From positions 5,435 to 69,434 of the forward strand of contig CAYYXE010000001.1 of the NCBI GenBank assembly GCA_964475655.1: a DNA stretch of 64,000 nt. The letters run 5' to 3'. Shown here one piece after another: positions 4,608 through 61,946 of this stretch. The position numbers and the translations under genes are program-made. Each line of letters begins with the position of its first letter. Position 1 is the stretch's first letter. Source of the stretch: an uncultured Candidatus Saccharibacteria bacterium. Lineage in GTDB: Bacteria > Patescibacteriota > Minisyncoccia > Phycocordibacterales > UBA9973. The notes beneath the pieces were generated by a model. That model was not told the DNA's origin and did no database searches. It worked only from the letters and a program-made list of their open reading frames with translations.

Positions 4608-4889
4608 TTAATGAGTACTGGTCTTGCTGCGTTTCTTTTTTACTCTTTCATATTGATAATCTACAAGACTTCTGAAAAAATCGTTCAATAAATCAAAAAT
4701 AATCCAAAATATTGATCCAACCAAAACAGAAGAAGAGATGAATACCCCTAAGGTATTTGCGTGTGTGCTTTTATCAGAAAAATAGTTTAGACAAACTAAT
4801 GAGCAAAATATGATGCCAATGCTAAATACTAATTTAAGGCTTGTAAAAAACAATCTACTACCAAGAGTAAATGAAGGATCTTGTTTCAT
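4608..4889 (-). CDS. hypothetical small membrane protein (AT-rich)
   Basis: 93 aa, two hydrophobic segments, AT-rich codon usage. Confidence 0.4.
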   Translation of the reverse strand: MKQDPSFTLGSRLFFTSLKLVFSIGIIFCSLVCLNYFSDKSTHANTLGVFISSSVLVGSIFWIIFDLLNDFFRSLVDYQYERVKKKRSKTSTH

Positions 4890-16885: not shown

Positions 16886-17278
16886 TTATTTGCCAGCTTC
16901 TCTAACCACTGGAATACCCCAATCATCAATGATTACTCCTTTCCGCACTATGTAAGTCATAGATGTATCGATAGGAAGATCTTTAATAATTGCAACCCTG
17001 AATTCAGGTTTTCCGGGACCCTCACTTACCAAGGCCTGATAGTAGTGTTTTTCATCCTTTAAATGAAAGTGTGTTGTTACAGCATCTTTAAATGTTAGTT
17101 TAACACGAAGATTGTCTTTTAAGTTTCCGTATAAACTTTTGTAGGCATTTAAGGAGTCACGGCATTCTTGAATTTCTTTTTGTAATTGAGAAATCCCCTT
17201 ATTATCTTCATTGTCCTCGCAGGATACAAATAATGTTGTAATAGCTGCAAAAAGCAGAAATAAAAATACTTTTTTCAT
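16886..17278 (-). CDS. small putative lipoprotein (LFVSC lipobox), AT-rich
   Basis: MKKVFLFLLFAAITTLFVSC...; driven by repeated promoter module. Confidence 0.55.
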   Translation of the reverse strand: MKKVFLFLLFAAITTLFVSCEDNEDNKGISQLQKEIQECRDSLNAYKSLYGNLKDNLRVKLTFKDAVTTHFHLKDEKHYYQALVSEGPGKPEFRVAIIKDLPIDTSMTYIVRKGVIIDDWGIPVVREAGK

Positions 17279-20567: not shown

Positions 20568-20975
20568 ATGAAAATACGAACAATAACTACTGAAGCAGAA
20601 ATGAGTCTTGAACAACTAACTGCTGTTTTAAGACATGCTGGATTGTTGGTTAGAAATCAAGTAATCCACGAAATCAGCAGAGATTTAAATGGAATCCGAT
20701 TCACAATTACTGAGCAGGTTGATCAAGAATTTACAACATCCGGCCGAGTATTTACTGAAAAAGAAGAAAAAATTATTTGCAGTAAATCACTCGAGGATTT
20801 AAATCTTAGTGTGAGAGCGTTTAATTGCCTAAAAGCTTCCAAGATAAATTCTTTAAGACAACTTCTGGATTATTCAGAGGAAGACTTAACAAAATTTCGA
20901 AATTTTGGAATGAAATCTATTTCAGAAATTAAAGAAGTTCTTACCAAGCTAGGGTTAAGCCTCAATTCTAATTGA
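20568..20975 (+). CDS. stand-alone RNA polymerase alpha C-terminal-domain (alphaCTD)-like protein with unknown 70-aa N-domain
   Basis: C-terminal LEDLNLSVRAFNCLKASKINSLRQLLDYSEEDLTKFRNFGMKSISEIKEVLTKLGLSL matches alphaCTD (ELTVRSANCLK...GKKSLTEIK...GLSL); AT-rich. Confidence 0.7.
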   Translation: MKIRTITTEAEMSLEQLTAVLRHAGLLVRNQVIHEISRDLNGIRFTITEQVDQEFTTSGRVFTEKEEKIICSKSLEDLNLSVRAFNCLKASKINSLRQLLDYSEEDLTKFRNFGMKSISEIKEVLTKLGLSLNSN

Positions 20976-25493: not shown

Positions 25494-25799
25494 ATGTATA
25501 TGTTCTTTATGTTCAGATTTGTATACAGAGTCATTATTCCAATCATCATTACATGTGTAACCGCAATTGAATTTTTCGATAAAAGAGCTACTACAGATAT
25601 TACAAAATATCCTGTTTTGGGTGAAAAAACTTTTGTATTATTTGTATTTATGACATTTTGGTCATGGATTCAAATGTCTATACTCAGTGATGAGGGTCAA
25701 GACGATAGAGTAAGAGCTCGCAATATAATAAAACTCATTTATTTTGTGGGCCTTATCGCAATGATTGTTGTTTGGAAAAATAATTTGTATATGTACTAA
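25494..25799 (+). CDS. hypothetical small membrane protein (AT-rich)
   Basis: 101 aa, 3 predicted TM segments. Confidence 0.45.
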   Translation: MYMFFMFRFVYRVIIPIIITCVTAIEFFDKRATTDITKYPVLGEKTFVLFVFMTFWSWIQMSILSDEGQDDRVRARNIIKLIYFVGLIAMIVVWKNNLYMY

Positions 25800-27676: not shown

Positions 27677-28954
27677 TTAAAAATACTTTTCTGAACATTT
27701 TTTACCATTAACGATAATATGACAGTTATCGAGAGTAATATACTTTTTTAAAACTTCATGTATTTCTTCTGGACTTACGTTTTCCATAAAGTTATACCAA
27801 TCAGTGAAATCTTCTATCAAAGGGGTATCCTCAGGATATAAGTCAGAAAATTCATTTACAAAGTTTCTTGATGTTTGAATCTCTCGTATATCTGAAAACC
27901 ATTCCGTAACAAGTTTATCACGGTATTCTTTTTGAGATATTCCCTCTGAAAGAAGTTCTGTATAGCATTCAAAGATCGAATCAAGCAACAGGTCTGTTTT
28001 TTCGGGAGCAGTACCTGCAGTAGTCCCAGTGTACATCAAATGGTTAAGTGCAATTCTGGGAGAACCTAGACCATATACCAAGCCACGTTCATTCCGAAGT
28101 TTTTTGTAAAACCTTGAAGATAAACCGTCATGTGCATACTCTAGAGCAAATCTAAGAATAATACTCTCTCTCGAAGCTAAAACTGGTCCATCAAACCCAA
28201 CTACTACTCTTGTTTGCTCAAGATTCTGTTCAAGAAAAATTCTTGAACCCGAAGCAATCCGCTTGGGAGGGTCTGGGAGAAATTTTTTAATACCACACAA
28301 GAAATTGATATCTGAAAATGTTTTTTTGACATCGTCTACAGTACATCCACCAGCTATAACAAGTAGCATATTTTCAACAGTACAATGAGATCTAAAAAAA
28401 TTTTCAACGTTGATTGGCAACATAGCTACTATTGATTCTTTTGTACCCAAATTTGAATTACTCCAATTGGTACCATTTCCCCAAATAGACGCAAAAGAGA
28501 GACTTGAAATATACTCAGATTTCGAAAGATTTTGAAGTAACTCAGAAGTTATCACACCGATTTCTTTTTGATGTGACTGGGGAGTTATATATAATCCTGA
28601 CAAAGCTTCAGAGTAGTATTCTTTCATATTACTCATATGTTCAGGTATCGCCACTTCACATTCAATAGACATTTGGTCACGACCTGTGCGTGCGTTTGAG
28701 TGTCCACCGATTGAATCTATTATTCCTGCAAATGCTTCCTTTGTAGGATATTTGTTTGATCCAGATACAATAACGTGTTCTGTAAAGTGCGCCAGGCCAC
28801 TATCTCCATCATTAAATACAGATCCTGCACGCATGAGAATATTGGCAAAAATAGGACCGGAGGATCTTTGGATAAAAACAACCTTCAATCCATTTTCTAA
28901 TACGAGCTCGTGCTTCGTAACACCAAAATCATCGAGTGAATAGTTTCTTTTCAT
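27677..28954 (-). CDS. M16-family zinc peptidase (insulinase/pitrilysin-like)
   Basis: Inverted zinc motif HFTEH with downstream Glu; 425 aa; AT-rich. Confidence 0.75.
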   Translation of the reverse strand: MKRNYSLDDFGVTKHELVLENGLKVVFIQRSSGPIFANILMRAGSVFNDGDSGLAHFTEHVIVSGSNKYPTKEAFAGIIDSIGGHSNARTGRDQMSIECEVAIPEHMSNMKEYYSEALSGLYITPQSHQKEIGVITSELLQNLSKSEYISSLSFASIWGNGTNWSNSNLGTKESIVAMLPINVENFFRSHCTVENMLLVIAGGCTVDDVKKTFSDINFLCGIKKFLPDPPKRIASGSRIFLEQNLEQTRVVVGFDGPVLASRESIILRFALEYAHDGLSSRFYKKLRNERGLVYGLGSPRIALNHLMYTGTTAGTAPEKTDLLLDSIFECYTELLSEGISQKEYRDKLVTEWFSDIREIQTSRNFVNEFSDLYPEDTPLIEDFTDWYNFMENVSPEEIHEVLKKYITLDNCHIIVNGKKCSEKYF

Positions 28955-29022
28955 TATTTAAGTTTTTAACGTTTTACAAAATTGTTTATTAAAATAATAA
29001 CATAAATTTATTAAAAAGCAAA

Positions 29023-29601
29023 TTAAGATTTTTGGGCTATGAAATGAAACACATGCCAGTGTTTCGGGGTACCTACAGCAGTAGTTCCGTCTTTTTCTTC
29101 TTCTACAAATTCAATAAGTTCGAGATCTGACAGCATGTTTTGAGCTTCTTCTTTGGTTTGAAATGCAAGAGCTGCATCCGGTGTATTCCACTGGTCTCGA
29201 TCCCCAAATAATTGTCCAACAAATATCCCTTCTCGCTTTAGAGACACAACACAATTTTTCATAAATGCAGCAAAGCCGTCTTTTCCATAAAACGGAAGTG
29301 CGTATTGAGCATTAATAAGGTCATACGTATTGGGTACAAGTGTAAAATCTTGAAATGGTACATTTGCTAATGTAAATTTTGCAGAAGTAATACACATCGC
29401 AAATTCTTTGGATTGTGGTGAGCTATCGACTGCCGTCACCTGGTCAAAGCCTGCTTCCAAAAGATACTTTGATTCGATTAGTGTTCCGGCGCCAAGATCG
29501 AGAGCAGAGTTTCTATCTGGACAAATTTCAACAGCACGAACAAGTTGTTCTCGAGGCTTACGAGTTGCGTGTACTTTTGCGTATGTTTCCCAGTTTGCCA
29601 T
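29023..29601 (-). CDS. small class I SAM-dependent methyltransferase (TehB-like size/architecture)
   Basis: Motif I LDLGAGTL; acidic motif II VDSS; 192 aa. Confidence 0.7.
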   Translation of the reverse strand: MANWETYAKVHATRKPREQLVRAVEICPDRNSALDLGAGTLIESKYLLEAGFDQVTAVDSSPQSKEFAMCITSAKFTLANVPFQDFTLVPNTYDLINAQYALPFYGKDGFAAFMKNCVVSLKREGIFVGQLFGDRDQWNTPDAALAFQTKEEAQNMLSDLELIEFVEEEKDGTTAVGTPKHWHVFHFIAQKS

Positions 29602-29605
29602 ATGT

Positions 29606-31408
29606 TTACGCCATTAAGATCTGATTCTTAATCAATTTCTGATATTCTTTATTTTTCTTTTCAAGCTCAGCATGGGTTCCCTGTCCGACGATCTTACCTT
29701 CTGATACGACAAAGATAATATCAGCATCCATTACGGTGGAAAGTCGATGTGCAATGATAATCGTGGTGCGACCAGCTGCTGATCGGTTGATCGCATCATG
29801 GATGAGCTTCTCATTGATCGAGTCGAGTGCTGAGGTTGCCTCGTCAAAGATGAGGATCTTGGGGTCTTTGATAAGTGCTCGTGCGATGCCGATGCGTTGA
29901 CGTTCTCCACCTGAGACTTTGATACCACCTTCACCTATCACAGTGTCGAGTCCGTGATCTTTGAGCTTGACGACAAAGTCAGTAAGCGATGCATCCTCGA
30001 CTGCTTTTTGAAGTTTCTCTTCACTTACTTCTACCCCCGAAGGAATTCCAAACAATATGTTGTCTCTGATACTTCGGTCAAAGAGTTCAATCTTTTGTTC
30101 GACGTTGCCGATCTGAGAGCGAAGCCAGTGAAGGTCAAGCTCCTTGAGTGGCTCGCCATCAATCAAGATCTCACCTTCTGTGGCGTCATAATAGCGACGC
30201 ATAAGGTTTACGATAGTACTCTTGCCAGATCCAGATACACCGACAAATCCCACTTTTGCTCCGGGAGGGATTTTGAAACTTACCTCTGCAATCGTATGCT
30301 CAAGTTCATTTCCATCTGATTCTTCTTCATTTTCAATTTGCTGCGCTGATTGCCGGTATGGGTATGCGAAGCTTACCTTCTTGAATTCAATTTCACCTTT
30401 GAGCTCAGAGATAGTCTTGCCACCGATGTTGGGATTTATATCTGGTTCTATATCAAGAAGATCAAAATACTTTTTAATTTCAACTGTTTGGAACATTAGT
30501 CGACGCTGTGTATTCATAATATTATTGATATTGTCAAAAATTGATCCTGTCCATGCGTAAAATGTTACAAACATACCGACTGAGTGATATCCCTTAAAAA
30601 TAAAATAAATACCGACACCTAATGTTAGATATCTTCCGAGAAGAAGAATAATTTTGGAGCCATAGTATTCTTTTATATATGTGAGCCATGTTTTAATTGT
30701 AAAATCAGTAACTTTTTCGTACGCTATTTCGAAATCGCTCACTGTTTTATCTTCCTGTGCTTCTGCAATAACAAGCGTTGAATTTCTAAAAAGTTCTGAC
30801 TGCAACTTTGATTGCGATTGGTTCTTTTTACGCACTTCGTCCACTCGAGGGTAGTATCGAATATTTCGGTTGTATGCAATAAGTATGTGGAGCAATACAA
30901 ATATAAATGCTACTAATCCAGCTTTCCAATCAAATATAAAAAGAATGACAAATGTTACCAAAATCTGAATACCTGTTTGGAGCAGATCATAAATAAACAT
31001 ATTTACTGTATTGATCAGTGAATTCTGTCCTTTATTAACTATGGTCTGCTTCACACCTGAGTGTTCGTTGATGTGTTGACCTATCGAGAATTGAAACATT
31101 CTCTTGAGTGAGATCACAGAGAGTGCCTTATCGATATTTGCGTCGAGTTTTTTGATGTCAATGTATTCTTTGATATACCAGACAACCTGCTGCTGCAAAA
31201 TTGCAATGCCAAATGATGTGGCTAAAAAGATAATAGTGAGCCGAGCATCTCCTTTAATGATTGCATCAACACCCTTTCCAAATAAATATGGAGTAAATGT
31301 TGCAAATACCTGAACAATAGCAATTAAAGCTGCTGTAATAATGAAATATTTCCAAAAAGGTTTAAAAAATTGTATTGTTCTGTGCAAAAAACTTTTCTTT
31401 TTATTCAT
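29606..31408 (-). CDS. ABC exporter, fused permease + ATPase (type I exporter, MsbA/MdlB-like)
   Basis: 6-TM N-domain; Walker A GVSGSGKST, signature VSGGERQR, Walker B ILIFDEATSALD, H-loop IIAHRL. Confidence 0.85.
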   Translation of the reverse strand: MNKKKSFLHRTIQFFKPFWKYFIITAALIAIVQVFATFTPYLFGKGVDAIIKGDARLTIIFLATSFGIAILQQQVVWYIKEYIDIKKLDANIDKALSVISLKRMFQFSIGQHINEHSGVKQTIVNKGQNSLINTVNMFIYDLLQTGIQILVTFVILFIFDWKAGLVAFIFVLLHILIAYNRNIRYYPRVDEVRKKNQSQSKLQSELFRNSTLVIAEAQEDKTVSDFEIAYEKVTDFTIKTWLTYIKEYYGSKIILLLGRYLTLGVGIYFIFKGYHSVGMFVTFYAWTGSIFDNINNIMNTQRRLMFQTVEIKKYFDLLDIEPDINPNIGGKTISELKGEIEFKKVSFAYPYRQSAQQIENEEESDGNELEHTIAEVSFKIPPGAKVGFVGVSGSGKSTIVNLMRRYYDATEGEILIDGEPLKELDLHWLRSQIGNVEQKIELFDRSIRDNILFGIPSGVEVSEEKLQKAVEDASLTDFVVKLKDHGLDTVIGEGGIKVSGGERQRIGIARALIKDPKILIFDEATSALDSINEKLIHDAINRSAAGRTTIIIAHRLSTVMDADIIFVVSEGKIVGQGTHAELEKKNKEYQKLIKNQILMA

Positions 31409-37279: not shown

Positions 37280-37693
37280 GTGAAAACACTAACTCCTCGA
37301 GAGCAGTTCATGATGTTCTCAAATCTCTTTCTCATACTTCCTGTTATATCTGCCGCACAGTATCATGAGTGGTTATACTGTTTCTTTGCGAGTGGATTAT
37401 TTATATTCTCGCCACTTTTTCACTGGTATAGAATCAGTGATACTTCATCAATATATTTTCGTGTATTCAAAAAAGCTGATTGGATATTTGCGATTGGCGC
37501 ATTTCTGTATATGTACTATTACATCTATGCCTTTATTTCTGGAAGACAACAACTCGCTTTATTTATACTTCTCACGCTTGTTGTATGGTTCTTCTGGTAT
37601 GGATGGAGACGTGGTGAATATGACACATGGCACCCATGGTTTCATATCGTTGCCCCGATTGTATCATCAGTTATTCTTATCGTTGCGAATTAG
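37280..37693 (+). CDS. hypothetical membrane protein (AT-rich, Trp/Tyr/Phe-rich)
   Basis: 137 aa, 4 TM. Confidence 0.45.
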   Translation: MKTLTPREQFMMFSNLFLILPVISAAQYHEWLYCFFASGLFIFSPLFHWYRISDTSSIYFRVFKKADWIFAIGAFLYMYYYIYAFISGRQQLALFILLTLVVWFFWYGWRRGEYDTWHPWFHIVAPIVSSVILIVAN

Positions 37694-41393: not shown

Positions 41394-42851
41394 TTACTCC
41401 CTTGGCTTAAGCAATGGGAACAGCTGCGTCTCGCGGAGGGGCTTGTCGACGAGAAATGCGAAGAGTCTTTCTCCAAAGCCAAAGCCGAACGTTGGCGGCA
41501 TACCATGCTCAAGCATGCCGACAAACTCGTCGTCTGCCATCATTGCCTCGTCATCCCCTTCCGCAATGAGCCCTTGCTGAATATCAAATCGGCGCTTTTG
41601 TTCGATAGGATCATTGAGTTCGGCATGTGCACGACCCATTTCGCTCCCTCCAATAATGACTTGAAACATGTCGGTTTTGCGTGGATCCTTTTCGCTTGTC
41701 TTTGAAAGCGGTGCAACAACGAGAGGATGGTTTATGAGAAATGCCGGCCCACTCACTTGCTTGCGGCAATATTTCCACAATGAATCAGTCATGCGCTCTT
41801 TATTCTTGCCATCGTATTTGACGCCGAGTTCGGCAAGTTTTACAGCCATATCTTCAACGGAAGCAGCGAAAATATCGATACCGGTTCGCTTTTGTATTTC
41901 ATCAGCATAATCGATCTCTACCCACTCATCCTCAAGGTTGAATGTATGACCACGCGTCGTAAACGTCGTCGTACCAGCAACTTCTTTGGCAATCGTTATG
42001 AAGAGGTTTTTTACAAGCTCTTTCCCTGTACCTAGATTCATATACGCCGCATAGCACTCCATATTGGTGAACTCTTGTACATGATCAGGACTACTTCCTT
42101 CATTGCGATACACCCGACCGATCTCAAAGGTCTTGGGAAATCCTGCAGCCATGAGACGCTTCTGCCAGAGTTCTCCGACTGAGATGCGCATGAAGACATC
42201 GAGTGCAAAGTCTTTGTGATGTGTCTTGAATGGATTTGCTTCGGCACCGCCAGTGGTGACTTCGAGCGTCGGTGTTTCGACTTCCATAAAGCCTCGCTCT
42301 TTCATAAACGTGCGCGTCACGTCCCAAAACTTCGCTTTCTTTTTAAACATGTCTTGAAGCTCAGGATCAGTCAGGATGTCGAGATATCGCTTGCGGTAGC
42401 GTTCGTCTTCGTCAGTGAGGCCGTGCCATTTCTCAGGAAGCGGCAGAAGCGACTTTGCAAGCATGTTCCAGCCAGATACAAATAGTGCTTTCTCTCCGCG
42501 CTTAGTGGTGTACGCGATGCCGGTCGCTTCGACAAAGTCGCCAACGTCAGTCGTCTCGTTCCAGAGCTCGTATGCAGCAGTGTCCATCTCATCAGACTTG
42601 AGGAAGAGCTGCATGGTGCCCGTGCCATCAAATATATCTGCAAATGCAAGTCCGCCCTGCCCGCGCTTCGACATAATACGCCCTGCGAGTACGGCCGTGT
42701 CTTTGGTGCCTTCGTAGAGCGAAAAGCGGTCGATAAACACCTCGATTGTGTCGGTGCGGTTGGTATGAGCGGGATAGGGATTGATACCTTTCTCCTCAAG
42801 TATCGCCTTCTTTTTCAGCCGTTCGTCCCGCAGTTCTGGAATGGATGCCAT
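41394..42851 (-). CDS. lysS: lysine--tRNA ligase (class II)
   Basis: OB-fold N-domain, class II motifs (FMEVETP, RNEGSSPDHVQEFTNMECY, GGSEMGRAHAEL). Confidence 0.9.
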   Translation of the reverse strand: MASIPELRDERLKKKAILEEKGINPYPAHTNRTDTIEVFIDRFSLYEGTKDTAVLAGRIMSKRGQGGLAFADIFDGTGTMQLFLKSDEMDTAAYELWNETTDVGDFVEATGIAYTTKRGEKALFVSGWNMLAKSLLPLPEKWHGLTDEDERYRKRYLDILTDPELQDMFKKKAKFWDVTRTFMKERGFMEVETPTLEVTTGGAEANPFKTHHKDFALDVFMRISVGELWQKRLMAAGFPKTFEIGRVYRNEGSSPDHVQEFTNMECYAAYMNLGTGKELVKNLFITIAKEVAGTTTFTTRGHTFNLEDEWVEIDYADEIQKRTGIDIFAASVEDMAVKLAELGVKYDGKNKERMTDSLWKYCRKQVSGPAFLINHPLVVAPLSKTSEKDPRKTDMFQVIIGGSEMGRAHAELNDPIEQKRRFDIQQGLIAEGDDEAMMADDEFVGMLEHGMPPTFGFGFGERLFAFLVDKPLRETQLFPLLKPRE

Positions 42852-42887: not shown

Positions 42888-43358
42888 TTATTCTAATTTT
42901 CTCCCAGGAATAATAGCTGCCAAAATAAGTATAATTGATGTAATACTAATATGAGATGTGTTGAATAAGCTCAAATCGTACCCATATTGTTTATGAACAA
43001 AAATACTTACTATTTTTAACAAAAGGAAAAGAATAGCAATAGATACGGCGATCCAATTTTTAGTGAAATCTCGATATCGCTTATATGTTGTGTATGAAAT
43101 TAATAACACTCCAATAATAAAGACAGGGACGAAATTATTATAAATATCTGAACCTGGATACACGAAAGACAACAAATCGCCACCAAAAAGACCTCCTAAT
43201 GACCAGAAGAAAAACGAGATCCCAATTCCATATATAATAAATTGAAATCTATTAAACGTTTTATTCTTTAAAAAACTTGATAATCCTTTTACAGTATCAA
43301 TTTGCGGTACTTGCCAACCTAAATCTGTCCCTTCTTCTTTTGGATCTTGTACAAACAT
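42888..43358 (-). CDS. hypothetical membrane protein (AT-rich)
   Basis: 156 aa, 4 TM. Confidence 0.45.
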   Translation of the reverse strand: MFVQDPKEEGTDLGWQVPQIDTVKGLSSFLKNKTFNRFQFIIYGIGISFFFWSLGGLFGGDLLSFVYPGSDIYNNFVPVFIIGVLLISYTTYKRYRDFTKNWIAVSIAILFLLLKIVSIFVHKQYGYDLSLFNTSHISITSIILILAAIIPGRKLE

Positions 43359-43359
43359 A

Positions 43360-44427
43360 TTATATATTCTCTTTTTTTAGTTCTTCTATTAATTCTTTAG
43401 CATGCTTACTCAGTTTCTCCGGCAGCTTGATGTCGAGTTTGATGATGAAATTGCCGCGTTTGCTACCAGAGGTTGGTACACCTTTGTGTTTGAGTGTGAT
43501 AGTGTCGCCTACTCGTGTACCAGTCGGGATCGACACTTGCTCCATACCATCGAGTGTCTCGACTGCATAGGTCGCACCGAGAAGAGCGTCGGTGAGCTTG
43601 ATCGGAAGCGTCATGTACAGGTCTTGCCTGTCGCGCTTGATCGTCTTGTGTGGAACGACGGTGACGTGCACGTACAAGTCGCCTGACTGTCCGCCACTGA
43701 TCGCTTCACCCATACCTGCAAGTCGGAGTGTTTCGCCATTTTGAATACCAGCAGGGACAGTGAGTTTGATCGTGCGTTCTTCGTTGACCACGCCTTTGCC
43801 GCGGCAGGTCGCACAAGGATCCTTGGGGATCTTGCCGACGCCATGACATTTGTCACAGATTTGGTTGGTCGCGATCGAGCCGAGGATCGTGCGCTGGATG
43901 TTGCGCACTTGGCCCTTGCCGTTACATTGGCTACAGGTCTCGAGACTTGTACCAGGCTTTGCGCCGTTGCCCTTACAGGTGTTGCAAGTACTTGGCTTTT
44001 TGATCCTGAGCTCGCGTTCGACACCAAAGATTGCATCCTTGAAGTCAAGCGAGATAGTGGTCTGCAGATCCGCTCCGCGCTGTATGCGACTGCGTCGTCC
44101 ACCACCAAAGATGTCGCCAAACATATCGCCCAGATCGAATTCGAAGCCCCCGGCACCTTGCTGGAAACCACTAAAATCGAAACCTCCGAAGCCTTGGCTC
44201 CCTCCGCCAAAGGCGGACGGCCCTTCAGAGCCGAACTGATCATACTGCGCACGCTTCTGATCATCTGAGAGTACTTGATATGCTTCGTTTACTTCCTTAA
44301 ACTTTGCCTCGTCGCCGGTGGATTTATCAGGATGGTATTTATGCGCCATTTTGTGGAAGGCCTTTTTGATCTCATCCTTTGACGCACCCTTTTCGATGCC
44401 CAGCGTCTTGTAATAGTCCTTACTCAT
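43360..44427 (-). CDS. dnaJ: chaperone DnaJ
   Basis: J-domain HPD (KYHPDKS), G/F region, four CxxCxGxG repeats. Confidence 0.9.
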   Translation of the reverse strand: MSKDYYKTLGIEKGASKDEIKKAFHKMAHKYHPDKSTGDEAKFKEVNEAYQVLSDDQKRAQYDQFGSEGPSAFGGGSQGFGGFDFSGFQQGAGGFEFDLGDMFGDIFGGGRRSRIQRGADLQTTISLDFKDAIFGVERELRIKKPSTCNTCKGNGAKPGTSLETCSQCNGKGQVRNIQRTILGSIATNQICDKCHGVGKIPKDPCATCRGKGVVNEERTIKLTVPAGIQNGETLRLAGMGEAISGGQSGDLYVHVTVVPHKTIKRDRQDLYMTLPIKLTDALLGATYAVETLDGMEQVSIPTGTRVGDTITLKHKGVPTSGSKRGNFIIKLDIKLPEKLSKHAKELIEELKKENI

Positions 44428-44758
44428 ATAGTGATTATACCACGAATGTCAAATAAAGAAACCACCCAGAAACTGAGTGGTTTTTTCTCAAACAATAAAA
44501 CTTGCAATGAAACAAAATTTACACCTCCCCGAAGGATCTAATCATAGGCTGATGGGTTTAGTGAGAGATATTTCAAAACAAAATAGCACTCGAGGTGCTA
44601 TTTGTCAATTATCGATGACGCATTGAGACGGTCTTGCCATCTCGCTTTGCCTTCTTCTTTGCAGCAATTTTTCTCTTTTTGTTCATGGAAATACTATAGC
44701 ATAAATTGGAAATAAAAAAAGCCTTTTAGTTTTTCAAAAGGCTTTTAATGAGGCGTTT

Positions 44759-45121
44759 TTAAATGAGGAAAAATTTATTTCGGAATAGTCCAACTATTCT
44801 TTGCAGAAAATGTTTTATTTTAAAAACCCATTTTTTAAAAAAAGGAGTCAATAAAACAGTAAAGAATAGACTAAAGAACCCAATGCCTGCATTTGCAAGA
44901 AAAGCTGCTAGTGCAGGAGTAAAAGCAATGACGGTAACAGTGTAGTTCAAATCTTTTTCATCCAGATACCATAATATTACCAATGAAAAAATTACTATCG
45001 GTACAGGTATGCAGGATTGATTTTCTTGGAAGAAAACAATACTAAATCCGAAGAAAAGTATCCAAATTATAAACAAGATGACACCGAGTATTTCCTTGAG
45101 AAGTGGCAATAACTTTTTCAT
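44759..45121 (-). CDS. hypothetical membrane protein (AT-rich) between dnaK and dnaJ
   Basis: 120 aa, 3-4 TM; preceded by repeated terminator-promoter module. Confidence 0.45.
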   Translation of the reverse strand: MKKLLPLLKEILGVILFIIWILFFGFSIVFFQENQSCIPVPIVIFSLVILWYLDEKDLNYTVTVIAFTPALAAFLANAGIGFFSLFFTVLLTPFFKKWVFKIKHFLQRIVGLFRNKFFLI

Positions 45122-45156
45122 ATTTAAGATTTTTAGTTAAATAACTTATTTTTTAT

Positions 45157-45185
45157 AAAATACAATATTTTAAAATAAAAGTCAA
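45157..45185 (-). promoter_or_regulatory. promoter TTGACT-17-TATTTT (module copy) for 45121 gene
   Basis: minus-strand -35 at 45180-45185; homologous to 17319..17347. Confidence 0.4.
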
Positions 45186-45192
45186 TACATAC

Positions 45193-45218
45193 AAAAAGCC
45201 CTATTTCTAAGGCTTTTT
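45193..45218 (-). terminator. terminator after dnaK (module copy: AAAAAGCC..GGCTTTTT)
   Basis: Near-identical to hairpin at 17352..17382. Confidence 0.5.
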
Positions 45219-45242
45219 GTGAGGTTTGTATTTGAATATCGA

Positions 45243-47144
45243 TTATTCCTTTGGAGCTTCTTCTGTCGTATCAGTCGCCTCAGCATCTTTGGGAGCTGAC
45301 TCTGCACCTGCTGGAGCTTCTTCTTTTGGTGCATTCTTTGCGATATGTTCGCCGATCTTTTGCATTTCGGTTGAGAGGGCGTTTACCGCCGCATCAAGTG
45401 CTGCCTTATCACTTCCCTCCTTTGCTTTCTTTGCTTCATCGATCTTGGCCTGCACCGAAGTCTTGATCTCGTCTGGTATATTTGCGCCGTGTTCTTGCAA
45501 AGCTTTCTCAGCTGAGAAGATCATCATATCTGCAGTGTTCTTAGCGTCCGCCATCTCTTTTTTCTTGGCATCATCTGCTGCATTCATCTCTGCATCTTTC
45601 TTCATCTTTTCGATGTCTTCTGGAGTGAGGCCACTTGAGGCTTCGATACGGATAGATTGCTCTTTGCCGGTTGCCTTATCCTTTGCTTTGACTGCGAGAA
45701 TGCCGTTGGAGTCCACATCAAAGGTCACCTCGATCTGTGGAAGTCCGCGGGGAGCTGGCGCAATACCGTCGAGCACAAATCGTCCAAGAGATTTGTTGTC
45801 TGCTGCCATTGGGCGCTCACCTTGCGTGATATGGATCTCAACAGACGGCTGGTTATCGGTCGCAGTGGAGAAGATCTGACTCTTTGAACTTGGGATAGTC
45901 GTGTTGCGTTCGATGAGCTTGGTCGACACACCGCCCATAGTCTCAATACCGAGACTGAGCGGGATCACATCGAGCAAGAGCACGTCGCGCACATCACCTT
46001 GAAGCACACCACCTTGGACTGCCGCACCGAGTGCAACCACTTCGTCTGGGTTGATTGAACGATTGGGTTCTTTGCCAAAGAGCTTCTTTACTTCTTCGAC
46101 GATCTTGGGCATGCGCGTCTGACCTCCCACAAGGATCACTTCATTGATGTCACTCATCTTGAATCCTGAGGCTTCCACTGCGCGCTTGGTGATGTCGATA
46201 GAGCGCGTAATGAATTCGTCTGCGATCTCTTCGAGCTTTGCGCGAGTCATTTTGAGCAAGAGGTGTTGTGGTCCTGCATCGGTACTCGTGATGAACGGGA
46301 TGTTGATCTCGGTCTCTGTTGTCGTACTGAGCTCGATCTTTGCCTTCTCAGCCGCTTCGTCGAGTCGCTGGCGGGCAAGGGCGTCCTTCATCACGTCGAT
46401 GCCGGTATCCTTTTTGAATTCGTCGGCGATCCACTGCATGATCTTGAGATCGATGTCGCGTCCTCCCATGAGCGCGTCTCCGTCAGTCGACTTCACTTCG
46501 ATCGATTGCATGTCGTCGACATCGGACACCTCGAGGATCGAGATATCAAACGTTCCACCTCCGAGGTCGTACACGGCGATCTTTTCATTCTTTTTGCTGT
46601 TAAATCCGTATGCGAGTGCTGCAGCAGTTGGTTCGTTGATGATGCGCTTGACGTCAAGACCGGCGATTGCACCCGCGTCTTTGGTCGCCTTGCGCTGTGC
46701 GTCGTTGAAGTATGCAGGCACGGTAATGATCGCTTCCGTGATCTTTTCACCGAGCTTTGCTTCGACGTCTGCCTTAATCTTCTGCAAGATCATCGCAGAG
46801 ACTTCTTCGGGGCGGTATTCTTTGCCGTTCATGGTGACGAGCGCGCCACCATCTGCGCCACTCGTAACCTTAAATGCAGAAGACTTCACTACCTTTTCGA
46901 TGCCTTCGTCTGAGGCCTTGTGACCCATGAAGCGCTTGATACCGTAGATCGTGTTCTCCGGGTTCGTCACGGCCTGGCGCTTTGCGAGGAGTCCCACGAG
47001 TCGGTCACCGTTTTTGCCCACTGCGACGATAGACGGTGTCGTACGTGCACCTTCGATGTTTTCGATAATTTTGGGCTGGCCACCTTCGATGATGGCTACC
47101 GCTGAGTTTGTCGTTCCAAGGTCAATTCCAATGATTTTTGGCAT
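45243..47144 (-). CDS. dnaK: chaperone DnaK (Hsp70)
   Basis: [27 protein letters not shown] signatures. Confidence 0.95.
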
Positions 47145-47264
47145 AGTTTGAATATATAAATAATTTATAAATATAAGTATTTTGGAGGAATTTCTGTAAT
47201 TTTACGATAATTTCGCGACCGCAAAATACTTGTACAAAAAGGAGTATAGTGCTACGATTTTGCT

Positions 47265-47795
47265 ATGTCAAGTAATTCTATACGACAAAGCTATTCCAAA
47301 AAGCTATTGGCCCTCCTCGGGTCCAAACCAGCCCTCCCAGTAGAGAAACTAGGCGACTGGATAGACGTCTCAGGCACCGAAAAGTATGCGCTTACACGGT
47401 CACTGAAGGGCCTCAGGGAAGCAGGACTCGTCGAGTACCACGACTCAGGACAGCAAGAGTATGCCCGTCTCACCCGCGATGGCCGCAAGAAGGCGCACAG
47501 CCTCAAGCTCGATGAAGATACCGCCGTGCTAAACCCCAACTGGGATGGCAAATGGCGCATCATCATGCTCGACCTCCCCGAAGACCGCAAAAGCGATCGT
47601 GATGGCCTGCGCTATCTGCTCAAAAAGGCAGGCTTTATCCTCCTCAAAAACTCCGTCTGGATCTCTCCCCACCCCTTCGAACACTTCTTTGCAAATATCA
47701 AAAAAGACCTCGGTCTAACGACAGAGATCATGATTTTTGTGACGGATACGCTGGATAGCGAAACTGAGAAAGAGTTTTTGAAACTATTAAAATAA
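47265..47795 (+). CDS. PaaX-family-like transcriptional regulator (wHTH + PaaX C-domain)
   Basis: C-terminal WDGKWRIIMLDLPEDRKSDRDGLRYLLKKAGFILLKNSVWISP matches PaaX_C pattern W-G-W-hhh-LPE-R-R-LR-L-GF-L-VW. Confidence 0.55.
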   Translation: MSSNSIRQSYSKKLLALLGSKPALPVEKLGDWIDVSGTEKYALTRSLKGLREAGLVEYHDSGQQEYARLTRDGRKKAHSLKLDEDTAVLNPNWDGKWRIIMLDLPEDRKSDRDGLRYLLKKAGFILLKNSVWISPHPFEHFFANIKKDLGLTTEIMIFVTDTLDSETEKEFLKLLK

Positions 47796-48041
47796 ATGAA
47801 ATGGGTTTATAAAGACAAGATAAATTATTATAATAATAAGCAATCCAAGAGCTACCCCAAGAACAATATTAATTGCCCTATATACTTTTTGATTTCTAGT
47901 GAAAATACCAATAAGAGAAATTAGTATAAAAACTCCAGACCAAAAAACTTCAGCAAAATTAGCAGTCCCTGTACTATGAAAAGAATCCATTAGAAGAAAT
48001 ATAGGGTATCCAAGACCTATAATTGGTAAAATATATCTCAT
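47787..48041 (-). CDS. hypothetical small membrane protein (AT-rich)
   Basis: 84 aa, 3 TM. Confidence 0.4.
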   Translation of the reverse strand: MRYILPIIGLGYPIFLLMDSFHSTGTANFAEVFWSGVFILISLIGIFTRNQKVYRAINIVLGVALGLLIIIIIYLVFINPFHLF

Positions 48042-48042
48042 A

Positions 48043-48363
48043 TTATTTCACTTTTGATTCTAATTTTTCGACACGAATAAGCATGTGCTCTATCTTTTCG
48101 TCGTGCTTGGAAGCGGTCATTTCGTTTTGAAACATCCTTTTCCTAAAGTCTTCATGATCAGTATGGATCACTTGAATTTCTTTTAGAATAGAAGTTAGTA
48201 CTTTCGCTTGTCTTTCAAGTGCATCATTAACAGCCGCAAAAGACTTCGCAATAGACATCATCGCTTTCTCAAAGGTCTTTTCGGTCACATACTTTTCAGT
48301 TGTTTTGGCAGCAGCTTTCTTCATTGTTGAGACAGTATACTCCCCGCTTCTGGCAAGGTGCAA
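48043..48363 (-). CDS. hypothetical coiled-coil protein
   Basis: 106-aa ORF directly downstream of grpE. Confidence 0.4.
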   Translation of the reverse strand: MHLARSGEYTVSTMKKAAAKTTEKYVTEKTFEKAMMSIAKSFAAVNDALERQAKVLTSILKEIQVIHTDHEDFRKRMFQNEMTASKHDEKIEHMLIRVEKLESKVK

Positions 48364-48374
48364 ACTGGGGATAA

Positions 48375-48935
48375 TTACGCCTTGAGAACGAGCACTGTCA
48401 CCCTCGCCGGCCGAAGCACCGTCTCCCCGAGCTTATAGCCTTGCTGGAGGATGGTATCGATACGCTGATCAAAGCGTTTGTCCCCTGTCTCTACTTCAGA
48501 CACCGCTTCATGGTACTTGGGGTCAAAGACATCACCCTTCTCTGCTATAGGCTCGAGGTTGTGCTCCTTGAGCGCATTCATGAGCTGGCTGTAGATATAC
48601 TCGACACCAGTGCGCCAAGTTGGCTCTACCTTCTCCCAGGCCTCCTTGTTGGACATTGCCATATTGAAGCTATCCACTACCGGAAGCAAGTCTTCGACAA
48701 ACCGCACGGCAAAGTGCTCACGGAAGCGCTTCTTGTCTTCGTCAGTAGACTTCTGGAGATTGGCATAGTCGGCACGCGCACGCTGCCAGCCGTCGAGATA
48801 CTCGGTCTTTTCTTTCTCAAGAGTCTTGATCTTTTCTTGGAGTTTTTTGAGCTTGGCGTCCCCAGGGAGCTCATCCCCATCTTCATTGGACTCGACAAAC
48901 TCAGGGTCGAGCACTACATCTTCATCGTCTTTCAT
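48375..48935 (-). CDS. grpE: nucleotide exchange factor GrpE
   Basis: Long N-terminal helix + C-terminal beta-domain motifs (ARADYANLQK, GDVFDPKYHEA). Confidence 0.85.
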   Translation of the reverse strand: MKDDEDVVLDPEFVESNEDGDELPGDAKLKKLQEKIKTLEKEKTEYLDGWQRARADYANLQKSTDEDKKRFREHFAVRFVEDLLPVVDSFNMAMSNKEAWEKVEPTWRTGVEYIYSQLMNALKEHNLEPIAEKGDVFDPKYHEAVSEVETGDKRFDQRIDTILQQGYKLGETVLRPARVTVLVLKA

Positions 48936-49020
48936 ACGGCATCATTATACTGAAAATTGGGAATAAAAAAAGAGCTTGGTTAGAGCTCTTGGGAAGGTAA
49001 TGTTCTATTGTGTTACTGAA

Positions 49021-50911: not shown

Positions 50912-51925
50912 TTATTCCTTCAAAGACAAGCCGAGGGCTCCGAGTGCGTCACGGATCTCTGTGATACCCTTGTCGCCGATACCGTCGATCTCGAGGAGAT
51001 CAGCTACGTGCTTGCGCGCAACACCGCCGACTGTGCGGATGTTTGCTGCAGTGAGGGCATTGAGGGTACGGGTCGAGAGGCCGATCGTATCGATGCGGTT
51101 CTTGAGCACATCGGTAACGTCGACTGAGTCTTCACTCTCTGTCATAGAAGCTGCCCCAGCAGCATCAGTAGCCGCTTCTGCCATCAGAGGAGCCTTCATG
51201 CTCATGCGTGACTGTACTTCTTCGATCACGCCAGGAGCGCTGATAGAAACGATCGCTGCGAGCTGCTCGATCATAGTGCCGACTGACTGCTCGAGCGCTT
51301 CGCGAGGAGAGATCGTGCCGTCGGTCTCGATGGTCATGCGGAGGCGGTTGAAGTTGGTCTTGTCGCCGACACGCATTTCTTCGACATCGTATGAGACGCG
51401 TCGGATAGGAGAAAAGATCGCATCAAGAAAGATCGTACCGATATCAGCCTTTTGCTTGTGGTGTGCTTCGCGAGAGACAAATCCGAGACCCTTTTCGATA
51501 GTAAGCTCGATGGTGAGAGATGCCTTGCCGGTGATCTCGCAGATGTACTGGTCAGGATTTGCAACCGTTGCCGCACCCTTTGCGGAGATATCTGCTGCCG
51601 TTACCACCTTGGGACCCTTGACTGAAAGGGTGACCTTTTGGGGCTCGTCAGTGGTGAGTGCAAAGCGCACGTTCTTGAGGTTGAGAAGGATTGTGATCAC
51701 GTCTTCTTTGACGCCGTCGATCGTTGCAAACTCATGACTTACTCCATCGATCTTTACTGCAGTGATCGCAGTACCCGTAAGAGACGAGAGGATGATGCGA
51801 CGCAGAGAGTTGCCGAGCGTATAGCCGTATCCTGGCACGAGACCGTCTATTTCAAATACGCCTTTGTTGCCTTCTTCGAAGGTAGCTTTTGGTTTGGATG
51901 GGAGCATGATGTTGTGTTGGGTCAT
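50912..51925 (-). CDS. rpoA: DNA-directed RNA polymerase subunit alpha
   Basis: NTD GNSLRRIILSSL and own CTD (LSTRTLNALTAANIRTVGGV...GLSL). Confidence 0.9.
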   Translation of the reverse strand: MTQHNIMLPSKPKATFEEGNKGVFEIDGLVPGYGYTLGNSLRRIILSSLTGTAITAVKIDGVSHEFATIDGVKEDVITILLNLKNVRFALTTDEPQKVTLSVKGPKVVTAADISAKGAATVANPDQYICEITGKASLTIELTIEKGLGFVSREAHHKQKADIGTIFLDAIFSPIRRVSYDVEEMRVGDKTNFNRLRMTIETDGTISPREALEQSVGTMIEQLAAIVSISAPGVIEEVQSRMSMKAPLMAEAATDAAGAASMTESEDSVDVTDVLKNRIDTIGLSTRTLNALTAANIRTVGGVARKHVADLLEIDGIGDKGITEIRDALGALGLSLKE

Positions 51926-57983: not shown

Positions 57984-58250
57984 GCGCCCATACTAGCAAA
58001 AAATGGCTAATAAAAAAAGCGCTCCTGTGCGGGCGCCTTAAATCAAAACCTGTGGAAATAGTTTAGCTCACGAAAAAACAAAATACAACAGTAGCTATTA
58101 CAGCACAAACTACTATCTCTGCGCACTTTATAAAAAGTGGCGATTCTTTTGAAAAAATCGGAATGTGACGAAACATAGGCTGAATTGGTTTAATTAGTGA
58201 AAAAAATAACAATCCTTTTTCCACTATACAACATATGCATGGTTTTGCAA

Positions 58251-60038
58251 TTATTTCTTTTTTGACTTCAGCCAATTCTTCGAAAGCTTCTCGAGGCGGT
58301 CGATATCTGCTTCGATCCCCTTAAGTCCTGCTTCAAAAAACTTTTTGTCAGTGTTAATGCCAATACTTTTGAATATATCTTTGGGACTCATAGAGTTTCC
58401 GGCGGAAAGAAATTGTTCGATTTTTAATTTAAATGAATGATCTTTTTTCCAGTTTTCATATAATGCACGGCTCACAAGTAACCCATAGACATAGGTATAC
58501 ACATAGAACGAATAACGCAAATGCGACCATGCCGTAAATACATACCCATCATCTTCTGTTATTTCAACCGCATTTCCAATATACGATTTAAGATGTTTTT
58601 GCATGATCCGTGCCATTTCTTCTTTTGAAAGGTATGCTTTTGATCTGACCCCTTCCTGCAGTTCTTTTTCGCAATTAAAGCATGCTATCTGACGGAACGT
58701 CGTAGCGATATCGCGATTGATTCTATCGTGTAAAACGATTATTTGTTGATCATCAGGCAAACCTTTGAGAATTTCATCGACTACAAATTGCTCAAAAAAC
58801 GTACTCGCGACTTCCGCTACCGAAATCGTATAGTCACCATAGAGCGGATCAAGTGGCTTGCTGAGTTCGGTATGGATTGCATGTCCCATTTCATGAGCAA
58901 GTGTTTCAACTGACTTGAGATTATTAACATGATTGAGAAAAACAAAGACAGGCAGTTTACCAAGCCCTGAGCAAAATGCTCCGCCCTTTTTGCCAGTCCG
59001 AGGCGACACATCGATTTGTCCTTGTTGTAAGTAAGTATCCAATAGGTCACTATACTTTTGATCAAATTTTGCAAATGCACTTTTTACAATCGACACAGCT
59101 GAGTCGAAATTAAATTCTTTTTTTATTTCACCCAAATGAAGATACAGGTCAGAAATTGTAAGTTTTTGTTCTTTTGTTAGTTTTTTGTGAAGAGTGTAAT
59201 ATCGATTGCTAATCGGAAATAGCTTTGTGGTAACCTCAACCAAATCGTTTACTTCCTTTTCATCATTTTCATATTTAAGCACTGTCGCACTATACGGTGT
59301 TTTGTATCCACGCAACTCATCACTTACTTTTTGAGTTGCATATATAGCGTTTAACTCTGCTTCAGCAAGGTTTGCAGTGTTTTTGCGAGCAGCAATTACT
59401 TTGTAATAAAGCGCGTGTCGTTCATCTTTTTTACGTAAACTCGTATATATCTCAGTTGCTTGAGATAACGATATTTTTTTACCCTTATATTCAACAAGCT
59501 GCTCACTGAGTAGCTTAACTTGTGCGTCATACCACATCTTTTCTGCAGGCTGAGAAAGAAGCGAAAAGAGCTGTTCTTCTTTTTCAGTCAAATTATGTGA
59601 TGCTCGAACAAAGACTTTTTGCAAATAATACCAAAAATGTTTCAATATTTTATCTTGCAGATATTTCTTTTGATTTTCTTTTGGGATTTTTGCAAGTGTC
59701 AATTCAAAAAATAACACTTTATTGAATGCTTTACGTTGGCGTTCATTCATCTTAGTTTCCATTGCTGCGGCGTATGTGTTGCTAGTATTGATGCTTTTAC
59801 ACAAACCAAAATACCAAAGTGGTTTATACGTAGAATCTGATAAGAACAACTCATAGTCTTTCAGCGCCTGAAGAAGTTTTGATGTAGTGCTTATAAAGTC
59901 CTTTTCTTTATATTTTTTCTCAAAACGTGCACAAGCAGCTTCAATAAATTGCATATCCTTCTCAATAGCAGGGTCCTTTTCGTTTTTATAAAGGAGGCCG
60001 AGATTCCATTCAGTCTTATATTTCATACCCGCCATCAT
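58251..60038 (-). CDS. pepF: oligoendopeptidase F (M3B)
   Basis: HEMGHAIH zinc motif; M3 architecture; AT-rich. Confidence 0.85.
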   Translation of the reverse strand: MMAGMKYKTEWNLGLLYKNEKDPAIEKDMQFIEAACARFEKKYKEKDFISTTSKLLQALKDYELFLSDSTYKPLWYFGLCKSINTSNTYAAAMETKMNERQRKAFNKVLFFELTLAKIPKENQKKYLQDKILKHFWYYLQKVFVRASHNLTEKEEQLFSLLSQPAEKMWYDAQVKLLSEQLVEYKGKKISLSQATEIYTSLRKKDERHALYYKVIAARKNTANLAEAELNAIYATQKVSDELRGYKTPYSATVLKYENDEKEVNDLVEVTTKLFPISNRYYTLHKKLTKEQKLTISDLYLHLGEIKKEFNFDSAVSIVKSAFAKFDQKYSDLLDTYLQQGQIDVSPRTGKKGGAFCSGLGKLPVFVFLNHVNNLKSVETLAHEMGHAIHTELSKPLDPLYGDYTISVAEVASTFFEQFVVDEILKGLPDDQQIIVLHDRINRDIATTFRQIACFNCEKELQEGVRSKAYLSKEEMARIMQKHLKSYIGNAVEITEDDGYVFTAWSHLRYSFYVYTYVYGLLVSRALYENWKKDHSFKLKIEQFLSAGNSMSPKDIFKSIGINTDKKFFEAGLKGIEADIDRLEKLSKNWLKSKKK

Positions 60039-61688: not shown

Positions 61689-61946
61689 ATGCTAAAAATT
61701 CAAATTCGTAGGACTATTACAACTCTTATCAATCCTTCAAACTTCACCGTTGACAGCAACAGTCACGACAAAAAAGTAAATGAATTCCTGGAAAAACTTA
61801 CAGCAACAGACGACTTTGAAACATCTGTTCGACACGAGGAAATAGGTATACAGAATGGAGTATTTTTCGTTTCAGTTTTTCTCAGCAGTTTTTATAAGAA
61901 CAAGAAAGAGTTATACGAAAAAATCGTCAGCGAAGCTGCAAAATAA
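61689..61946 (+). CDS. hypothetical small protein (AT-rich)
   Basis: 85-aa ORF followed by strong terminator. Confidence 0.35.
   Translation: MLKIQIRRTITTLINPSNFTVDSNSHDKKVNEFLEKLTATDDFETSVRHEEIGIQNGVFFVSVFLSSFYKNKKELYEKIVSEAAK

Follow-up and report, generated by a model that had tools for sequence, protein, structure and literature searches.

The 64,000-nucleotide (nt) stretch of contig CAYYXE010000001.1 analysed here, which we call the window, carries the chaperone genes grpE, dnaK and dnaJ on its minus strand, interrupted by a plus-strand gene for a short winged-helix protein related to the repressor PaaX. This protein, called the regulator below, and the DNA that separates its gene from dnaK are the subject of this study. 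The names of homologues place the organism in Patescibacteria, class Paceibacteria (Minisyncoccia), near 'Nomurabacteria'. A first-pass annotation, made from the letters of the window alone, had described the order of the minus-strand genes and put the PaaX-like protein forward as a candidate stress regulator. The order is borne out by the six-frame list of open reading frames (ORFs) and by Pfam scans: grpE is followed by a 106-amino-acid (aa) ORF and an 84-aa ORF and then, past the regulator gene, by dnaK, a 120-aa ORF, dnaJ, a 156-aa ORF and lysS (Table 1). Beyond grpE lie a 155-aa ORF, rpsI and rplM. The core genes of the locus have a GC content of 0.50-0.55, and of 0.54-0.64 at third codon positions (GC3). 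The regulator gene is monocistronic, and at its 3' end it shares 9 nt, tail-to-tail, with the 84-aa ORF.

Two sets of relatives were compared with the window. A scan of one genome per species gave 80 loci, in which gene neighbours were placed by tblastn, and another 80 came from metagenomes, for which the scan used distant members of the family, aligned and 28-40% identical to the lead sequence; single loci are cited below by an L and a number. Motif searches covered the window and these 160 loci, 161 sources and 1.75 Mb altogether, the relatives being represented by about 6-10 kb per side (at most 20 kb each).

A two-domain relative of PaaX

The only domain that Pfam finds in the regulator is PaaX_M (PF20803, E 4.5e-22), which spans residues 91-170 and profile positions 2-81 of 83. 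PaaX_C is not found by Pfam, and the protein stops at residue 176. Its score against TIGR02277, the PaaX equivalog of NCBIfam, is 39.5 bits, below the cut-off of 264.55. An AlphaFold 2 model (mean predicted local distance difference test score 75) has a winged helix at residues 10-82, with helices at 10-20, 26-32 and 39-52 and a beta wing at 56-69, and then a beta-alpha-beta-beta-alpha-beta domain. When the model is compared by Foldseek with the PDB, the top match is E. coli PaaX (8a39; E 7e-8, 179 aligned columns, 17% identity), followed by the PaaX-like structural-genomics proteins 3l09 and 3kfw and then by MarR/ArsR-type repressors. A profile search of PDB sequences with the regulator gave nothing significant, and fold comparison alone recovered PaaX. 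The regulator is thus a truncated, two-domain protein of the PaaX superfamily, a winged helix-turn-helix (wHTH) joined to a Cas2-like domain, and not an orthologue of PaaX. The label PaaX-like stands for the superfamily, on the strength of PF20803 and the fold match to 8a39; it does not extend to PaaX proper, given the missing PaaX_C and a TIGR02277 score far below cut-off.

PaaX is the repressor of the phenylacetate catabolic (paa) genes in E. coli and Pseudomonas. Like the regulator, it starts with a winged helix at the N terminus and continues with the Cas2-like PaaX_M domain, and a palindrome-binding repressor is what one would expect in both cases. The two differ in length, at about 305-316 aa for PaaX (305 residues in the 8a39 chain) and 176 aa here, where the whole C-terminal domain is gone. 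They differ also in company: PaaX is associated with paa genes, none of which occurs among the window ORFs scanned, whereas the regulator has dnaK for a neighbour and a candidate operator sequence of its own.

More than 1500 homologues of the regulator were found, the best 120 listed being 61-94% identical to it, a level of sequence conservation that is unusually high for a regulatory protein. Around them is a wider family of short wHTH plus Cas2-like proteins of Patescibacteria, comprising 2973 representative clusters at E <= 1e-3. Its distant members share the two domains, a length of about 170-210 aa and the motif set WDGxWR...LRxxLKKxGF...SVW with the regulator, but they are only some 30-35% identical to it (Kaiserbacteria and others) and none adjoins dnaK. 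By sequence and by neighbourhood, then, the dnaK-linked proteins stand apart as an orthologous subgroup within a large Patescibacteria family. Proteins of this kind are often named 'Cas2' or 'PaaX, phenylacetate regulator', a common mis-annotation that the present assignment corrects. The name 'CRISPR-associated endonuclease Cas2', given in NCBI records, is probably wrong for the paralogues as well, because their contexts are unrelated and non-CRISPR: two from Kaiserbacteria (L161 and L162) lie between rpsG and fusA, L163 and L164 are likewise in unrelated surroundings, and examples of such contexts also include positions after a PIF1 helicase gene or after a histidine-kinase-like gene.

Divergent chaperone genes and a conserved palindrome

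Wherever the contig extends far enough in the 80 genome loci, dnaK is the gene immediately upstream of the regulator gene and diverges from it. Two arrangements occur. The first, lysS-dnaJ-dnaK <-> regulator <- grpE-rpsI-rplM, is that of the window and is also found in many metagenome loci. In the second, dnaJ-dnaK-grpE <-> regulator <- rpsI, grpE heads the divergent operon; it is found in 20 metagenome loci (L082, L084, L086-L088, L090-L093, L095, L097, L101, L105, L106, L109, L113, L114, L125, L144 and L160). Comparison with relatives, a check that the first-pass annotation had suggested, therefore places the regulator divergent from the chaperone genes in 128 of 131 evaluable loci (108 with dnaK, 20 with grpE-dnaK-dnaJ), the other three having more than 1.2 kb of unassigned sequence upstream. 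Since the regulator still diverges from the first gene after grpE has changed sides, it follows the head of the chaperone operon. The annotation had also placed the gene where hrcA would be. This fits the 20 distant loci, where it is directly upstream of grpE; it does not fit the window, where the gene lies between grpE and dnaK and diverges from dnaK. The spacer between dnaK and the regulator is short and stable (120 nt in the window, median 158 nt across loci), unlike all other slots of the block, which vary from a few nt to several kb.

Alignment of these spacers uncovered a palindrome with the family consensus TTTCGYG-RY-CRCGAAA (7-2-7). The window copy, TTTCGCGACCGCAAAA, begins 54 nt ahead of the regulator ATG and is the sole match with fewer than two mismatches in 64 kb. 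At up to two mismatches, 75 of 81 first-set sources have the palindrome upstream of the regulator gene, the others being truncated, insert-bearing or, in one case, without a palindrome match; overall it is present in 127 of 161 sources, in 77 distinct variants. The distance from palindrome to regulator start is about 45-57 nt in most loci. At this threshold some 3.8 matches per 64 kb on both strands are expected by chance, and the five in the window are at that level. The only positions matched apart from the operator, at about 60270 and 17541 and with two mismatches each, lie inside MgtC and S24 peptidase ORFs and were set aside. Each locus has a single copy of the site: the 20-kb related loci hold no further copy at zero mismatches and scattered matches at one or two, none of them upstream of grpE or dnaJ.

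The conserved sequence extends beyond the palindrome. Its right flank, TACTTGT, is nearly invariant across loci, and in many of them the left flank mirrors the right, making a 36-bp symmetric element, TTGACAAGTWTTTC-N8-GAAAWACTTGTCAA, that is found in 82 of 161 sources at up to six mismatches and contains two outward-facing -35 boxes 22 bp apart. Loci in which grpE comes first have a related TTTC-N8-GAAA element at the same position, with a changed core such as TTTCATGTAGGTGAAA. The central 8 bp and the recognition helix differ together by clade: TRSLKGL occurs with CGYGRYCRCG, and NR[TA]IK[KN]M with CAT.T...TG. In this small sample, the pairing of helix and core is suggestive of the co-evolution expected of a regulator and its site. 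Covariation between the half-sites is absent, with 46 Watson-Crick pairs against 42 expected in one comparison and 40 against 35 in another; half-sites that vary independently point to a protein-binding site rather than a hairpin.

Two further motifs accompany the palindrome in loci of the window type. One, AAGTATTT, seems to be the operator's left flank at a displacement of 9-30 nt from the palindrome (window 47184-47192 and 47223-47231; L001, L009, L013, L015, L017 and others), and a conserved GTAGAAATAC motif stands on the dnaK side. They may be what is left of the 36-bp element, or else an additional element for binding or for a promoter.

Promoters were assigned by consensus and conservation. 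That of the regulator consists of TAC, a -35 box TTGTAC (47230-47235), a 17-nt spacer and a -10 box TACGAT (47253-47258), and a TAnnAT hexamer is kept at a fixed distance from the ATG across the aligned loci. The ATG comes only 6 nt past the -10, so the regulator mRNA is probably leaderless. On the other strand, the predicted dnaK promoter has a -35 box TTGACA (47271-47266), 17 nt and a -10 box TATACT (47248-47243), matching 11 of 12 consensus positions. Its -35 overlaps the regulator ATG, which may be why ATGTCAAG is conserved at the nucleotide level despite variable N-terminal residues; (c)actatact is likewise kept in relatives. The palindrome ends 3 bp upstream of the regulator -35, and a dnaK transcript starting at the predicted position, about 47236, would cross it at about +11 to +26. 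Placed in this way by both promoters, the palindrome is where a bound dimer would hinder both. With its short spacer and a palindrome at promoter elements, the layout falls into the class of divergent autoregulated repressors with a shared operator, a class defined by function and not by homology.

An operator shared by grpE, dnaK and dnaJ, for which the first-pass annotation had suggested a motif search, was not found: in the window-type arrangement the site occurs only at dnaK and the regulator. There each of grpE and dnaJ has a promoter to itself, which closely follows a terminator and places TATAAT 6-9 nt ahead of the ATG; neither promoter bears the palindrome. They would belong to the regulon only where the operon is shared.

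The annotation had further reported neither hrcA nor a canonical CIRCE (controlling inverted repeat of chaperone expression) at the locus, and this holds. No HrcA domain (Pfam HrcA_DNA-bdg or HrcA C-terminal) was found in the locus ORFs or the other large window ORFs scanned. CIRCE at up to three mismatches is absent from the window and all 160 related loci, whose dnaK, grpE and dnaJ upstream regions were covered; three matches occur at four mismatches, none near dnaK, grpE or dnaJ. HAIR (HspR-associated inverted repeat) gave four scattered matches at up to two mismatches, one of them (L027) in a dnaK-regulator spacer, and in these 161 sources it does not recur at the conserved operator position.

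A candidate repressor of dnaK and its rivals

The proposal that the PaaX-like protein is a stress regulator is strengthened by the 128 divergent loci of 131 and by a conserved palindrome common to both promoters. We judge it probable, from comparison of sequences, that the protein is an autoregulated repressor of dnaK belonging to a new family, its target being grpE-dnaK-dnaJ in those relatives where grpE heads the operon. It is probably the heat-shock regulator that had seemed to be missing from this large group. We propose a model in which the regulator, as a winged-helix dimer, would bind the palindrome in the spacer that parts its gene from dnaK. From that position it would cover the -35 of its leaderless promoter, so regulating itself, and would block the dnaK promoter, which fires through the site. 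The regulator would in this way fill the role taken elsewhere by HrcA and CIRCE or by HspR and HAIR. It may have lost, or never had, the C-terminal domain of PaaX, and because that domain is absent, chaperone titration or thermal lability would be the likeliest signals. Under heat or proteotoxic stress, release could follow either from the thermolability of the small dimer or from the titration of DnaK away from the repressor. Binding to the site, its repressive effect and the heat or unfolded-protein signal are what we infer.

The proposed circuit has clear parallels in the known systems. As with HrcA and CIRCE, a dedicated repressor would act at the head of grpE-dnaK-dnaJ through an inverted repeat at the promoter, and 20 relatives have the regulator gene where hrcA usually lies, directly upstream of grpE. 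The proteins are of unrelated families, however, and the regulator gene is divergent where hrcA is co-transcribed; the operators are also distinct, TTTCGYG-RY-CRCGAAA here and TTAGCACTC-N9-GAGTGCTAA in CIRCE. HspR, found in Actinobacteria, Helicobacter and Deinococcus, is likewise a small repressor, genetically linked to the dnaK operon that it mainly controls. It requires DnaK as a co-repressor, GroEL acting correspondingly for HrcA, and this feedback follows the same logic as we propose here. In contrast to the regulator, HspR is a MerR-family protein encoded by the last gene of the dnaK operon, and HAIR reads CTTGAGT-N7-ACTCAAG.

Several points weigh against a dnaK repressor. Support for it is wholly comparative, and the promoters are consensus-based. 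The distant paralogues sit in unrelated contexts, which shows that the short family as such is not chaperone-specific, and the separate, site-free promoters of grpE and dnaJ would leave dnaK and the regulator as the whole local regulon. An activator could also use a site that is flanked by two -35 boxes and centred at about -46, hrcA could exist elsewhere in the genome, and, since the entire core block lysS-dnaJ-dnaK-regulator-grpE-rpsI-rplM is syntenic, adjacency to dnaK could be inherited order.

Inherited order is the rival that survives best. The regulator might only autoregulate, or act on genes elsewhere, its position by dnaK being frozen synteny; lysS, rpsI and rplM are functionally unrelated to the chaperone genes and equally syntenic with them, the palindrome keeps a fixed distance from the regulator start as an autoregulatory site would, and the paralogues have other neighbours. 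Yet the regulator remains divergent from the first chaperone gene when grpE changes sides, and the dnaK spacer resists the insertions that fill all other slots. Many loci, moreover, have the mirror-symmetric element with a -35 facing the chaperone gene, and in the window a strong predicted dnaK-directed promoter fires through the site. We therefore regard frozen synteny as rather unlikely.

A regulator that binds the palindrome and activates both dnaK and itself, as a stress-responsive activator, would suit a symmetric site that adjoins each -35 and has its centre about 46-47 bp ahead of either predicted start. It sits less well with the window-type dnaK promoter, which lies upstream of the site and would put the protein at about +11 to +26, a position for a repressor. 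The flanking -35 boxes are near the TTGACA consensus and should have little need of activation, and PaaX and most of the MarR/ArsR-like structural neighbours are repressors. Activation is thus distinctly unlikely in our judgment.

It is highly improbable that the palindrome works as a nucleic-acid structure, be it a cruciform or, in the leader of dnaK, an RNA thermometer or attenuator hairpin. In the window-type arrangement it is indeed transcribed into the predicted dnaK 5' untranslated region, but its 2-nt centre cannot loop unless the stem opens, it lies about 65 nt from the start codon, and the sequence itself is conserved, not pairing alone, with no covariation beyond chance. The predicted 92-nt leader folds no better than shuffles (z -0.96), and its minimum-energy fold does not include the palindrome; on the covariation and the fold, the RNA thermometer was rejected. 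That the chaperone genes obey HrcA and CIRCE or another known system encoded elsewhere, with the PaaX-like gene irrelevant, gains something from the extent of the sequence covered (64 kb here and 6-10 kb per side, at most 20 kb, of the relatives) and is scarcely credible beside the complete lack of CIRCE at up to three mismatches in 161 sequences and the failure of HAIR to recur at the conserved operator position.

Returning to the regulator as a repressor of dnaK, what would be new is a dedicated repressor of a chaperone operon drawn from a different protein family, with a ligand-sensing repressor family reduced to a two-domain core and redeployed. It is tempting to go further, and to suppose that the truncated PaaX-like protein is the master repressor of the proteotoxic stress response in Paceibacteria, that it replaced HrcA and CIRCE, and that it senses stress without a small-molecule ligand, as DnaK is titrated or as heat unfolds its Cas2-like dimerisation domain. 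This wider proposal is a tentative one, on which we would not yet rely. If it is true, HrcA, HspR, CtsR and RheA would be joined by a fifth family of heat-shock repressors in bacteria, one not recognised before. Paceibacteria are a very large uncultivated class, among the most abundant lineages in groundwater and soil, and to our knowledge almost nothing is known of regulation of any kind in Patescibacteria (the candidate phyla radiation). A full-text literature search, with subscription journals outside its coverage, returned no paper linking PaaX-like proteins to dnaK or Patescibacteria, and no relevant paper on HrcA or heat-shock regulation in Patescibacteria. What the locus offers for a core stress gene is a candidate pair of regulator and operator, and its conservation extends over at least 128 genomes and contigs.

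Small genes, terminators and leaderless promoters

Table 1. Features of the chaperone locus in window coordinates (+ and -, strand; TM, predicted transmembrane segments)
Feature	Position	Strand	Basis and remarks
lysS	41394-42851	-	ORF list, Pfam
156-aa ORF	42888-43358	-	4 TM; GC 0.30, GC3 0.24; 1 nt 3' of dnaJ; AT-rich ORFan
dnaJ	43360-44427	-	Pfam DnaJ, DnaJ_CXXCXGXG, DnaJ_C; own leaderless-type promoter, without operator copy
Second terminator-like hairpin	44459-44483	-	Directly upstream of dnaJ promoter (TGGTATAAT, ATG 6 nt on)
Micro-gene terminator (CIRCE-like palindrome of the first-pass annotation)	44581-44603	-	Terminator scan
25-aa basic micro-gene, MNKKRKIAAKKKAKRDGKTVSMRHR	44609-44686	-	Conserved 3' of dnaK
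120-aa ORF	44759-45121	-	3 TM; GC 0.31, GC3 0.29; own promoter-like site and terminator
Terminator-like hairpin after dnaK, AAAAAGCC-N9-GGCTTTTT	45192-45219	-	Read from sequence; not among the terminators listed by the scan
dnaK (Hsp70), proposed target	45243-47144	-	Pfam HSP70, E 1.9e-235
Candidate operator, 16-bp palindrome TTTCGCGACCGCAAAA	47211-47226	.	Spacer alignment
Predicted regulator promoter	47227-47258	+	Consensus and conservation; inferred
Predicted dnaK promoter	47243-47271	-	Consensus scan, 11/12 matches
Short PaaX-like regulator gene, 176 aa	47265-47795	+	Pfam PF20803, E 4.5e-22
84-aa ORF	47787-48041	-	2 TM; GC 0.27, GC3 0.13; last gene of grpE transcription unit
106-aa ORF	48043-48363	-	Non-TM; GC 0.39; coiled-coil-like; start probably ATG 48324 (93 aa)
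grpE	48375-48935	-	Pfam GrpE, E 2.7e-40; TATAAT 48949-48944, ATG 8 nt on; terminator 48990-48970 just before

The small AT-rich genes that the first-pass annotation had seen in the chaperone locus are there, with a GC content of 0.27-0.31 for the 156-, 120- and 84-aa ORFs against 0.50-0.55 for the core. Its suggestion of repeated insertion holds in so far as variable low-GC ORFs occupy the same slots in relatives; such ORFs are not particular to the chaperone locus. Across the 80 relatives the slots lysS-dnaJ, dnaJ-dnaK, regulator-grpE and grpE-rpsI range from 4 nt to 8.9 kb, and they are empty or hold different ORFs, mostly on the same strand and often for membrane proteins, with a mean GC of 0.35 against 0.45 in the flanking chaperone genes. 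Along the whole window about 16 low-GC genes (GC 0.27-0.41, GC3 down to 0.13) stand singly among core genes of 0.48-0.56. They are mostly small, and many have transmembrane segments or lipoprotein-like signals. Examples lie at 63-503, 1620-1988, 4608-4889, 16886-17278, 20568-20975, 25494-25799, 27677-31408, 37280-37693, 58063-60038 and 61689-61946. Genes for an M16 peptidase, an ABC transporter and an M3 oligopeptidase also belong to this low-GC group. The gene at 20568-20975 (plus strand, GC 0.33) encodes a free-standing RNA polymerase alpha C-terminal domain of 135 aa (PF03118, E 1.1e-23), separate from the full-length rpoA at 50912-51925, and could be an accessory or mobile-element modulator of transcription.

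The small ORFs of the locus have few relatives. A search of 5.8 billion protein clusters with the 156-aa ORF gave back only the ORF itself. Identical copies are present on 15 contigs from several samples, and all six of the places shown are between dnaJ and lysS. The sole homologue of the 120-aa ORF in the 160 related loci occupies the same slot in L002 (77% identity in aa, 82% in nt), and the 84-aa ORF has none there. Homologues of the 106-aa ORF, which matches no family, lie between the regulator and grpE in L002, L013, L062, L063, L068 and L136. All-against-all BLASTP detected no paralogy among the small AT-rich ORFs, and none of the small ORFs scored above cut-off in Pfam or NCBIfam. The AT-rich genes are nevertheless real: open frames of 120-156 codons would be highly improbable by chance in DNA of 30% GC, as estimated from base composition, and the 120- and 156-aa ORFs recur in their slots as just described. 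Judged by sequence and position, these small membrane-protein genes are unrelated cargo, lineage-specific accessory genes in the gaps between syntenic core genes, and nothing ties them to the regulator.

The dnaK-dnaJ slot also holds a 25-aa micro-gene, MNKKRKIAAKKKAKRDGKTVSMRHR, which the first-pass annotation had overlooked and which is probably too short for gene callers. It lies 3' of dnaK in 26 related loci, with 258 synonymous and 96 non-synonymous codon differences, and is always downstream of dnaK, even where dnaJ is 2-6 kb off (window, L001, L002, L004-L007, L009-L013, L015, L018, L023, L025, L027, L031, L034, L036, L041, L044, L062, L066, L069, L120 and L155). An extended -10, TGCTATAGT, stands 6-7 nt ahead of its ATG; the gene is leaderless in appearance and has its own terminator. 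The product is rich in Lys and Arg (consensus MNKKRK[IV]AAKKK.K..GKTV..RHR), has no family match in Pfam or NCBIfam, and might be a ribosome-associated or nucleic-acid-binding peptide. Together with the AT-rich single-gene inserts, it is a lead for studies of genome dynamics and small proteins in the group.

The palindrome near 44590, described in the annotation as resembling CIRCE with a 6-nt centre, in fact reads ATAGCAC-TCGAG-GTGCTAT on the plus strand, with a centre of 5 nt. Read on the minus strand, the palindrome is AAATAGCAC-CTCGA-GTGCTATTT with TGTTTTG after it, and it scored as an intrinsic terminator. Its T-run, its position after the micro-gene and its lack of sequence conservation identify it as terminator-like, with unrelated hairpins in its place in relatives, and we rejected it as an operator or degenerate CIRCE. 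Between the micro-gene and dnaJ, two terminator-like hairpins stand about 100 nt apart on the minus strand (44459-44603); relatives do not conserve the sequence that separates the two, and it has no Rfam match. At the gathering threshold, an Rfam scan of the window found one tRNA only and no known RNA element at the chaperone locus.

Finally, TATAAT-like -10 hexamers 6-9 nt from an ATG, with no Shine-Dalgarno sequence, precede grpE (48944-48949), dnaJ (44434-44439), the micro-gene (44693-44698) and the regulator (47253-47258), and they are found at the same positions in relatives. This recurrence suggests, at the level of sequence, that leaderless mRNAs are common in the clade. Many such promoters come directly after the T-run of a terminator and have the motif TTATT(T/C/G)CCAA 6-7 nt before the -10.

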